From Escherichia coli (GTDB lineage: Bacteria; Pseudomonadota; Gammaproteobacteria; Enterobacterales; Enterobacteriaceae): 334 nucleotides of DNA. A program made the translations under genes and the position numbers. The DNA lies in NCBI RefSeq assembly GCF_003334335.1, contig NZ_QOWQ01000217.1; one strand, written 5' to 3'. This document shows positions 1 to 334 of the stretch, one piece after another. Below the pieces are notes generated by a model. That model was not told the origin of the DNA, did not search any database, and saw only the letters and a list, made by a program, of their open reading frames with translations. The stretch's first letter is position 1; the number at the start of each line of letters is the position of its first letter.

Positions 1-334
1 GTCCGGTGGCCATCACGCCCTATACCCTGATGCAGGCCATTGCGGCGGAAGGTGATGTCACCACACCGGTGGTGGTGAAGCCGTCGGATGGAGAAGGCAC
101 AGTTATCAGCACCACCAGCGAACCGGAGTATTACTTTGTTGTTGTTCTGGCGGGGCAGTCAAACTCAATGTCTTTTGGTGAAGGGCTGCCGCTGCCGGAT
201 ACATATGACCGTCCGGACCCGCGTATTAAACAGCTGGCGCGTCGCAGTACGGTGACGCCGGGTGGTGTCGCCTGTAAATATAACGACATCATTCCGGCGG
301 ACCATTGTCTGCATGATGTACAGGACATGAGCCG
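1..334 (+). CDS. nanS: Internal fragment (5' and 3' ends outside the window) of an SGNH-hydrolase / sialate O-acetylesterase (SASA)-family protein, most likely a NanS-like 9-O-acetyl-N-acetylneuraminate esterase, possibly the prophage-type (NanS-p) form with an N-terminal extension
   Basis: Seen in sequence: the frame starting at nt 3 is open to nt 334 with no stop codon (first full codon 3-5, last full codon 330-332). Translation: PVAITPYTLMQAIAAEGDVTTPVVVKPSDGEGTVISTTSEPEYYFVVVLAGQSNSMSFGEGLPLPDTYDRPDPRIKQLARRSTVTPGGVACKYNDIIPADHCLHDVQDMS. Both other + frames hit stops within the first ~55 nt (tga at 28-30 in frame 1; tga at 53-55 in frame 2). Established knowledge: hydrophobic beta-strand followed by GQSN(A/S)M is the block-I nucleophile motif of SASA/SGNH esterases. 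The GEGLPLPD...DPRIKQLARRSTVTPGG...C.YNDIIPADHCLHDVQDMS stretch matches my recollection of E. coli NanS/YjhS-family proteins; this is recalled, not searched. Codon usage (ctg, ccg, gcg, cgt, ggt favoured) looks enterobacterial. The strand and frame are well supported; the specific NanS assignment is less certain. Confidence 0.8.
51..128 (+). other. Low-complexity Thr/Val/Pro/Ser-rich segment (GDVTTPVVVKPSDGEGTVISTTSEPE), putative interdomain linker upstream of the esterase core
   Basis: Seen in sequence: codons 17-42 of the open frame are dominated by T, V, P, S, G, E and D with no long hydrophobic run, directly preceding the first beta-strand of the esterase domain. Inference: this composition is typical of flexible linkers between domains and suggests another domain is encoded upstream of the window. 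Confidence 0.4.
153..164 (+). other. GQSN active-site motif (SGNH block I); putative catalytic nucleophile Ser encoded by tca at 159-161
   Basis: Seen in sequence: ggg cag tca aac at 153-164 encodes G-Q-S-N, immediately after the hydrophobic run YYFVVVLA (codons at 129-152). Established knowledge: in SASA/SGNH esterases the Ser of this motif is the nucleophile. The downstream catalytic Asp/His block lies beyond the window and cannot be confirmed. Confidence 0.7.

Follow-up and report, generated by a model that had tools for sequence, protein, structure and literature searches.

A conserved cysteine pair in the esterase domain of a prophage NanS-p protein is probably a pair of structural cytoplasmic thiols

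The closest described relatives of the gene studied here are the NanS-p proteins of Stx and other lambdoid phages, such as z1466/933Wp42 of phage 933W and vb_24B_21/gp84 of phi24B, which share its three-domain architecture and its position between Q and the lysis genes. Their gene, nanS-p, belongs to the late genes and is strongly induced, and the products of recombinant alleles remove O-acetyl groups from Neu5,9Ac2 and from mucin glycans (review PMC8065619). The phi24B homologue gp84 has been described as an abundant virion protein that decorates the T=9 capsid; its DUF1737 domain binds to the central hexons as a hexamer and is anchored by a Tyr 'tooth'. In fresh virions this protein is ~70 kDa, upon storage it is converted to ~35 kDa, and autoprocessing has been proposed to occur in its linkers, including the one between DUF1737 and the esterase domain (preprint 10.64898/2026.04.10.717836). 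The second well-described relative is the chromosomal NanS of E. coli (YjhS, PDB 3PT5), which is encoded in the nanCMS operon and consists of the esterase domain alone, without a capsid-binding or lectin-like domain. Further away, the wider SASA/CE6 group of SGNH esterases (At4g34215, PDB 2APJ; CAC0529, PDB 1ZMB; mammalian SIAE; the esterase domains of phage tailspikes) has the SGNH fold together with the GQSN and QGE blocks (PMC9487903). For these enzymes the structural TM scores are only 0.4–0.6, at 12–18% sequence identity.

We analysed a 334-nt stretch of E. coli DNA (contig NZ_QOWQ01000217.1), referred to below as the window. An earlier note, made from the sequence alone, had drawn attention to two closely spaced cysteines (C-K-Y-N-D-I-I-P-A-D-H-C) in a conserved-looking segment of an esterase domain, and had suggested a disulfide or a metal or structural site, whose presence would be relevant to a site of action outside the cytoplasm. 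The frame starting at base 3 (frame +3) is the sole stop-free one among the six; its translation reads ...GGVACKYNDIIPADHCLHDVQDMS, and the segment in question is V-A-C-K-Y-N-D-I-I-P-A-D-H-C-L-H-D. The coordinates, the peptide and the 11-residue spacing given in the note were all correct, as both TGT codons (273–275 and 306–308) lie in this only open frame. In the peptide encoded by the window, the two cysteines are at positions 91 and 102, and in the full open reading frame (ORF) at 125 and 136; we use the latter numbering (C125 and C136) throughout. By itself, the spacing is unremarkable: two randomly placed cysteines within 110 aa are ≤11 residues apart with a chance of 19%, and with six cysteines in the 331-aa esterase domain, some pair falls within that distance in 67% of cases by chance. 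The feature that stands above chance is the conservation of the pair. ORFs in the other frames of the window were taken as chance ORFs, since they sit inside a well-supported gene. On the minus strand, an antisense ATG ORF of 65 aa (131–328) comes with no evidence of being a gene and is most likely a chance ORF as well.

The window matches Escherichia phage PhiR5_1 (PV340545.1, 18946–19279) with 100% identity, lying there within the CDS at 18846–20834, and it matches many Stx1 and Stx2 phages with 88–92% identity. Of 5426 complete E. coli genomes, 1020 contain related copies, and the median number per copy-bearing genome is three. The full ORF in PhiR5_1 (L001:4901–6889) encodes 662 aa, of which the window covers residues 35–145 as a partial CDS on the plus strand (3–334); this assignment is supported by the open frame, the identity to PhiR5_1, the Pfam matches and a match to PHROG 143 that spans the full length of the ORF. 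Pfam identified three domains, namely DUF1737 (PF08410, residues 3–50, E 2.3e-15), SASA (PF03629, residues 81–276, E 4.2e-9) and DUF6645 (residues 511–619), whereas an NCBIfam search of the protein gave no match. Using phmmer, chromosomal NanS (PDB 3PT5) aligned to residues 74–394 (E 1.6e-114), and the C-terminal domain of NanS-p (PDB 6YP6) to residues 448–656 (E 3.8e-48). On these sequence matches, the gene is a NanS-p-type prophage sialate 9-O-acetylesterase composed of DUF1737, a SASA/SGNH esterase domain and a lectin-like DUF6645 domain.

The genomic context is that of a lambdoid late region. In PhiR5_1, the ORF lies downstream of Q (L001 3524–3904) and upstream of the lysis cassette (holin S, 7615–7830; lysozyme R, 8789–9322), which is the classic position of nanS-p. 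The layout is the same in an Stx2a phage (L002), where the gene for the homologue lies behind stx2AB and carries the annotation 9-O-acetyl-N-acetylneuraminic acid deacetylase; PhiR5_1, in contrast, has neither stx nor tRNA genes between Q and nanS-p. At L001 3900–4900, nanS-p is preceded only by a pair of short hypothetical ORFs and a ~580-bp gap. The PhiR5_1 allele and the NanS-p of the Stx2a phage are 60% identical overall, with a single difference in residues 1–57 and five in the block from 121 to 180, whereas residues 181–662 have diverged. The gene is thus a mosaic, in which residues 1–57 and ~74–180 are near-identical to the Stx2a-phage protein and the remainder from 181 to 662 is far more diverged. 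Such a pattern between L001 4901–6889 and L002 3901–5838 is consistent with recombination inside nanS-p, as judged from the two alleles.

Within the window, the C-terminal part of DUF1737 (residues 35–50) occupies positions 3–50 and includes Tyr41 (21–23). It is followed by the inter-domain linker (residues 51–73; 51–119), which varies between alleles and diverges from the Stx2a-phage NanS-p at residues 58–73. No other part of the window varies as much across alleles, and the linker corresponds to the region for which the gp84 preprint proposes a second autoprocessing site. The esterase domain (residues 74–394) begins at position 120 and fills the rest of the window (residues 74–145; 120–334), as supported by phmmer, by an AlphaFold2 (AF2) model and by Foldseek. 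The location of the cysteine pair in an esterase domain, as proposed in the earlier note, is therefore borne out by both the SASA/SGNH match (PF03629) and the match to PDB 3PT5. Block I (G85-Q86-S87-N88, ggg cag tca aac) lies at 153–164 and contains the nucleophilic Ser87; it aligns with '17 GQSNA 21' of 3PT5, and its four residues are 97–100% conserved family-wide. The remaining blocks, Block II (R188-G189), Block III (M246-Q247-G248-E249) and Block V (H373), lie further along the full ORF, beyond the window. Chromosomal NanS, which is 54% identical over the whole esterase domain, has the same residues in Blocks I, II, III and V. Neither C125 nor C136 belongs to these blocks as they have been defined and listed for 3PT5 (PMC10792757).

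Block II of the PhiR5_1 allele differs from that of most alleles (L001 5459–5470, residues 187–190; VPCGRGDSGF versus VPCCRGGSAF). Both substitutions are minority residues in a set of 120 close cluster representatives, where C187G occurs in six and G190D in five, and most members of the wider family have Gly at position 190, which makes D190 unusual. Judging by these residues, the esterase activity of the PhiR5_1 allele may be altered.

To place the two cysteines on the fold, we used an AF2 model built from a 67-sequence alignment (pLDDT 96, pTM 0.94); a single-sequence AF2 prediction of residues 1–400 was discarded (pLDDT 34). Foldseek matched the model to 3PT5 with TM scores of 0.92/0.96 and an rmsd of 1.6 Å, and to 2APJ and 1ZMB with E values of ~1e-8 to 1e-9. 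C125 lies in an inserted loop (residues 116–129, S-T-V-T-P-G-G-V-A-C-K-Y-N-D; 246–287) that is restricted to the NanS/NanS-p clade and is lost or shortened in most relatives below ~45% identity. DSSP assigned isolated beta-bridges to T117 and A124 of the model, between the strands at 109–112 and 130–132, which suggests that the insertion is folded as a small beta-finger with C125 at its base. C136 was modelled in coil, four residues past the strand at 130–132 and just after the second SGNH beta-strand. It forms part of a motif (P132-A-D-H-C136-L-H-D-V-Q141-D-M143; 294–329) that was also recognizable in distant relatives, as described below.

In the close set of 120 cluster representatives (67–99% identity, mostly E. 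coli NanS-p alleles), C125 and C136 are both invariant (120/120), and all NanS-p alleles that we examined carry both; the segment is thus as strongly conserved as it had looked. The neighbours of C125 are hypervariable in the same set (2.3, 1.0 and 2.2 bits at positions 123, 124 and 126). An invariant cysteine amid hypervariable neighbours is a classic signature of a disulfide partner, and a true structural C125–C136 bond, formed after lysis, could staple the beta-finger to the motif and stabilize the enzyme in mucus. The i, i+11 spacing corresponds to a common disulfide loop size. The pair is also present in Salmonella homologues and in chromosomal NanS, where it is C57 and C68, and a profile search showed that homologues at 55–66% identity (Salmonella and others) nearly all have the C...C arrangement. 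Exceptions included P0329 and P0358, with Ser at position 125, and P0131 (47% identity), with Thr; all three keep C136, which argues against a disulfide.

The two residues part company in the wider family. Our family search covered 1.84 billion representatives and returned 385 matches at E ≤1e-3. Position 136 is Cys in 83 of the 102 matches that cover it (81%), with mainly S, N, A, T and G as replacements, and these small substitutes suggest a buried or tightly packed free thiol. Of 70 long representatives, 73% retain C136, even at identities as low as 26%, within the motif P-x-x-H-C-x4-Q-D-M (P132 in 79%, Q141 in 81% and M143 in 83%), whereas C125 is found only in the eight closest. In distant relatives, the loop from 116 to 129 is deleted or position 125 is D, T, L, G or V. 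Put differently, sequence-detectable SASA/CE6 relatives mostly lack the C125 loop, and ~80% of them keep C136. C136 without C125 occurred in >50 matches and C125 without C136 in none of the sequences covering both positions, although these counts are phylogenetically non-independent; co-occurrence is therefore given as counts rather than as Fisher tests, given that the sequences are related and include fragments. Conservation of both cysteines among homologues, on which the earlier note had let its proposal stand or fall, thus holds within the NanS/NanS-p clade and breaks down beyond it, where C136 is found without C125 and C125 is deleted or replaced. From the alignments, C136 is an old residue of the family motif, and C125 is a later addition on a NanS-clade loop. 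One match found by the search with L001:5108–6100 was P0144 of Carp edema virus, a eukaryotic poxvirus; this 384-aa protein is 39% identical to the esterase domain and combines V125 with C136.

This distribution can be read in two ways with respect to a disulfide. C125 is seen only together with C136, as expected if the role of C125 depends on C136. Conversely, C136 is kept across most of the family without a partner at 125, and a disulfide therefore cannot explain the conservation of C136. The other cysteines of the esterase domain do not point to disulfide formation either: C160, C187, C282 and C294 are sporadic (17–42% Cys) and show no pairing pattern. Chromosomal NanS has seven cysteines, compared with six in the PhiR5_1 esterase domain, and a vicinal C186-C187 directly precedes Block II in most alleles. 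Sporadic additional cysteines, an odd cysteine number in NanS and a vicinal pair would all fit reduced, cytoplasmic thiols.

The surrounding histidines could point to a metal site. None of C125, H135, C136, H138 and D139 varies among the 120 close homologues, and H138 is kept across the clade at ≥45% identity, so that a structural ion such as Zn2+ could be held by C125, H135 or C136, and H138 (C-x9-H-C-x-H). Neither histidine holds in the wider family, however: where C136 is retained, position 138 can be Q, D or E and position 135 can be P, Y or W, with P0132 (W135) as an example. Adjacent His-Cys residues also rarely coordinate one ion. As both histidines change in sequences that retain C136, we give this alternative a low weight and consider it very improbable. 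In addition, a table of ligands bound to SGNH enzymes gives none for 3PT5, which is weak evidence in the same direction (PMC10792757).

The full-length N-terminus (MAFKHYDVVRAASPSDLAERL...) shows no Sec or Tat signal peptide, no lipobox and no hydrophobic core. It is made up of the hydrophilic DUF1737 domain, and the highest 10-residue Kyte–Doolittle mean within residues 1–69 is 1.03. Chromosomal NanS likewise has no signal peptide: the K-12 protein begins MNAIISPDYYYVLTVAGQSN and has its catalytic nucleophile at Ser19, which leaves no room for a cleavable leader. Most of the relatives that we inspected do not have a leader-like N-terminus either, with a hydrophobic start in three distant ones (P0151, P0153 and P0154). 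Inspection of the N-terminus for a signal peptide, proposed in the earlier note, was thus negative for the NanS-p ORF as well as for chromosomal NanS. Without a signal peptide there is no access to DsbA, which speaks against a C125–C136 disulfide, as does the retention of the pair in the signal-less chromosomal enzyme. In its favour, NanS-p is exposed on the virion and active outside the cell, where oxidation is possible. Yet conditions in the gut lumen are mostly anaerobic, and activity has been reported for NanS and NanS-p produced recombinantly in the E. coli cytoplasm. A text search of the literature for a disulfide or signal peptide in NanS-p and for Cys57/Cys68 of 3PT5 found nothing relevant. 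Taking these points together, we consider a structural disulfide formed after lysis unlikely, although it deserves to be kept in mind.

The same observations bear on the localization of the enzyme. The claim that the pair informs on action outside the cytoplasm could not be upheld, because the signal-less NanS carries it too and because the presence of gp84 in virions already shows extracellular action independently of the pair; the pair is therefore uninformative on localization. The N-terminal module is itself variable: in Salmonella enterica proteins whose esterase domains are 60–66% identical to that of PhiR5_1 (P0291–P0307), unrelated N-terminal segments often replace DUF1737. Judging by these sequences, phages seem to exchange the virion-anchoring module.

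A more elaborate possibility is that the pair acts as a redox switch, with cytoplasmic thiols turning into a disulfide after lysis and thereby timing the activation of the enzyme or the delayed self-processing of the capsid-bound protein. In line with this, the phi24B homologue is processed only after its release from the cell and during storage, and the pair is specific to a clade that includes the DUF1737-linked phage enzymes. However, chromosomal NanS has the pair and yet possesses no DUF1737 or C-terminal domain to be processed, and the proposed cleavage sites belong to the linkers, at a large sequence distance from the two cysteines. The idea is speculative, and we deem it highly improbable. 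The same very low odds apply to a redox sensor of the phage/NanS clade that would be reduced during capsid assembly and oxidized after lysis, and that would thereby alter activity or trigger self-cleavage from DUF1737. If true, a disulfide or redox switch acting after lysis would be a neat case of a virion enzyme that matures outside the cell.

The explanation that we favour, with a probability of roughly 60%, is that C125 and C136 are two structural thiols of a cytoplasmic protein, perhaps oxidizing after lysis, rather than marks of a secreted, disulfide-dependent one. C136 would be the ancient motif residue, kept alone in most relatives as a tightly packed free thiol, and C125 would have been gained later at the base of the beta-finger, where it most likely packs against the C136 region. 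Lacking a signal peptide, the protein would be synthesized in the reducing cytoplasm and would fold there, so that both cysteines should be thiols when the enzyme folds and becomes active. It would leave the cell at phage lysis, with DUF1737 anchoring the enzyme to the capsid. Later, opportunistic oxidation could give a disulfide, which would not be needed for folding or catalysis. We infer the thiol state, the role in packing and the dispensability of a bond for activity in this way, and a structural role for the pair, which the earlier note had also raised, is plausible on this basis.

The gene, its family, its fold and a crystal structure that contains the pair are all known, and the two cysteines are an ordinary feature of a known enzyme. 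The enzyme is a well-studied accessory protein of lambdoid and Stx prophages, and the finding changes little in practice. Even so, the two cysteines differ in their evolutionary history: C136 goes back to the family motif, and C125 was gained recently. What is useful is a correction: it would be a mistake to take the pair as a sign of export; members of this family leave the cell by lysis and capsid attachment.
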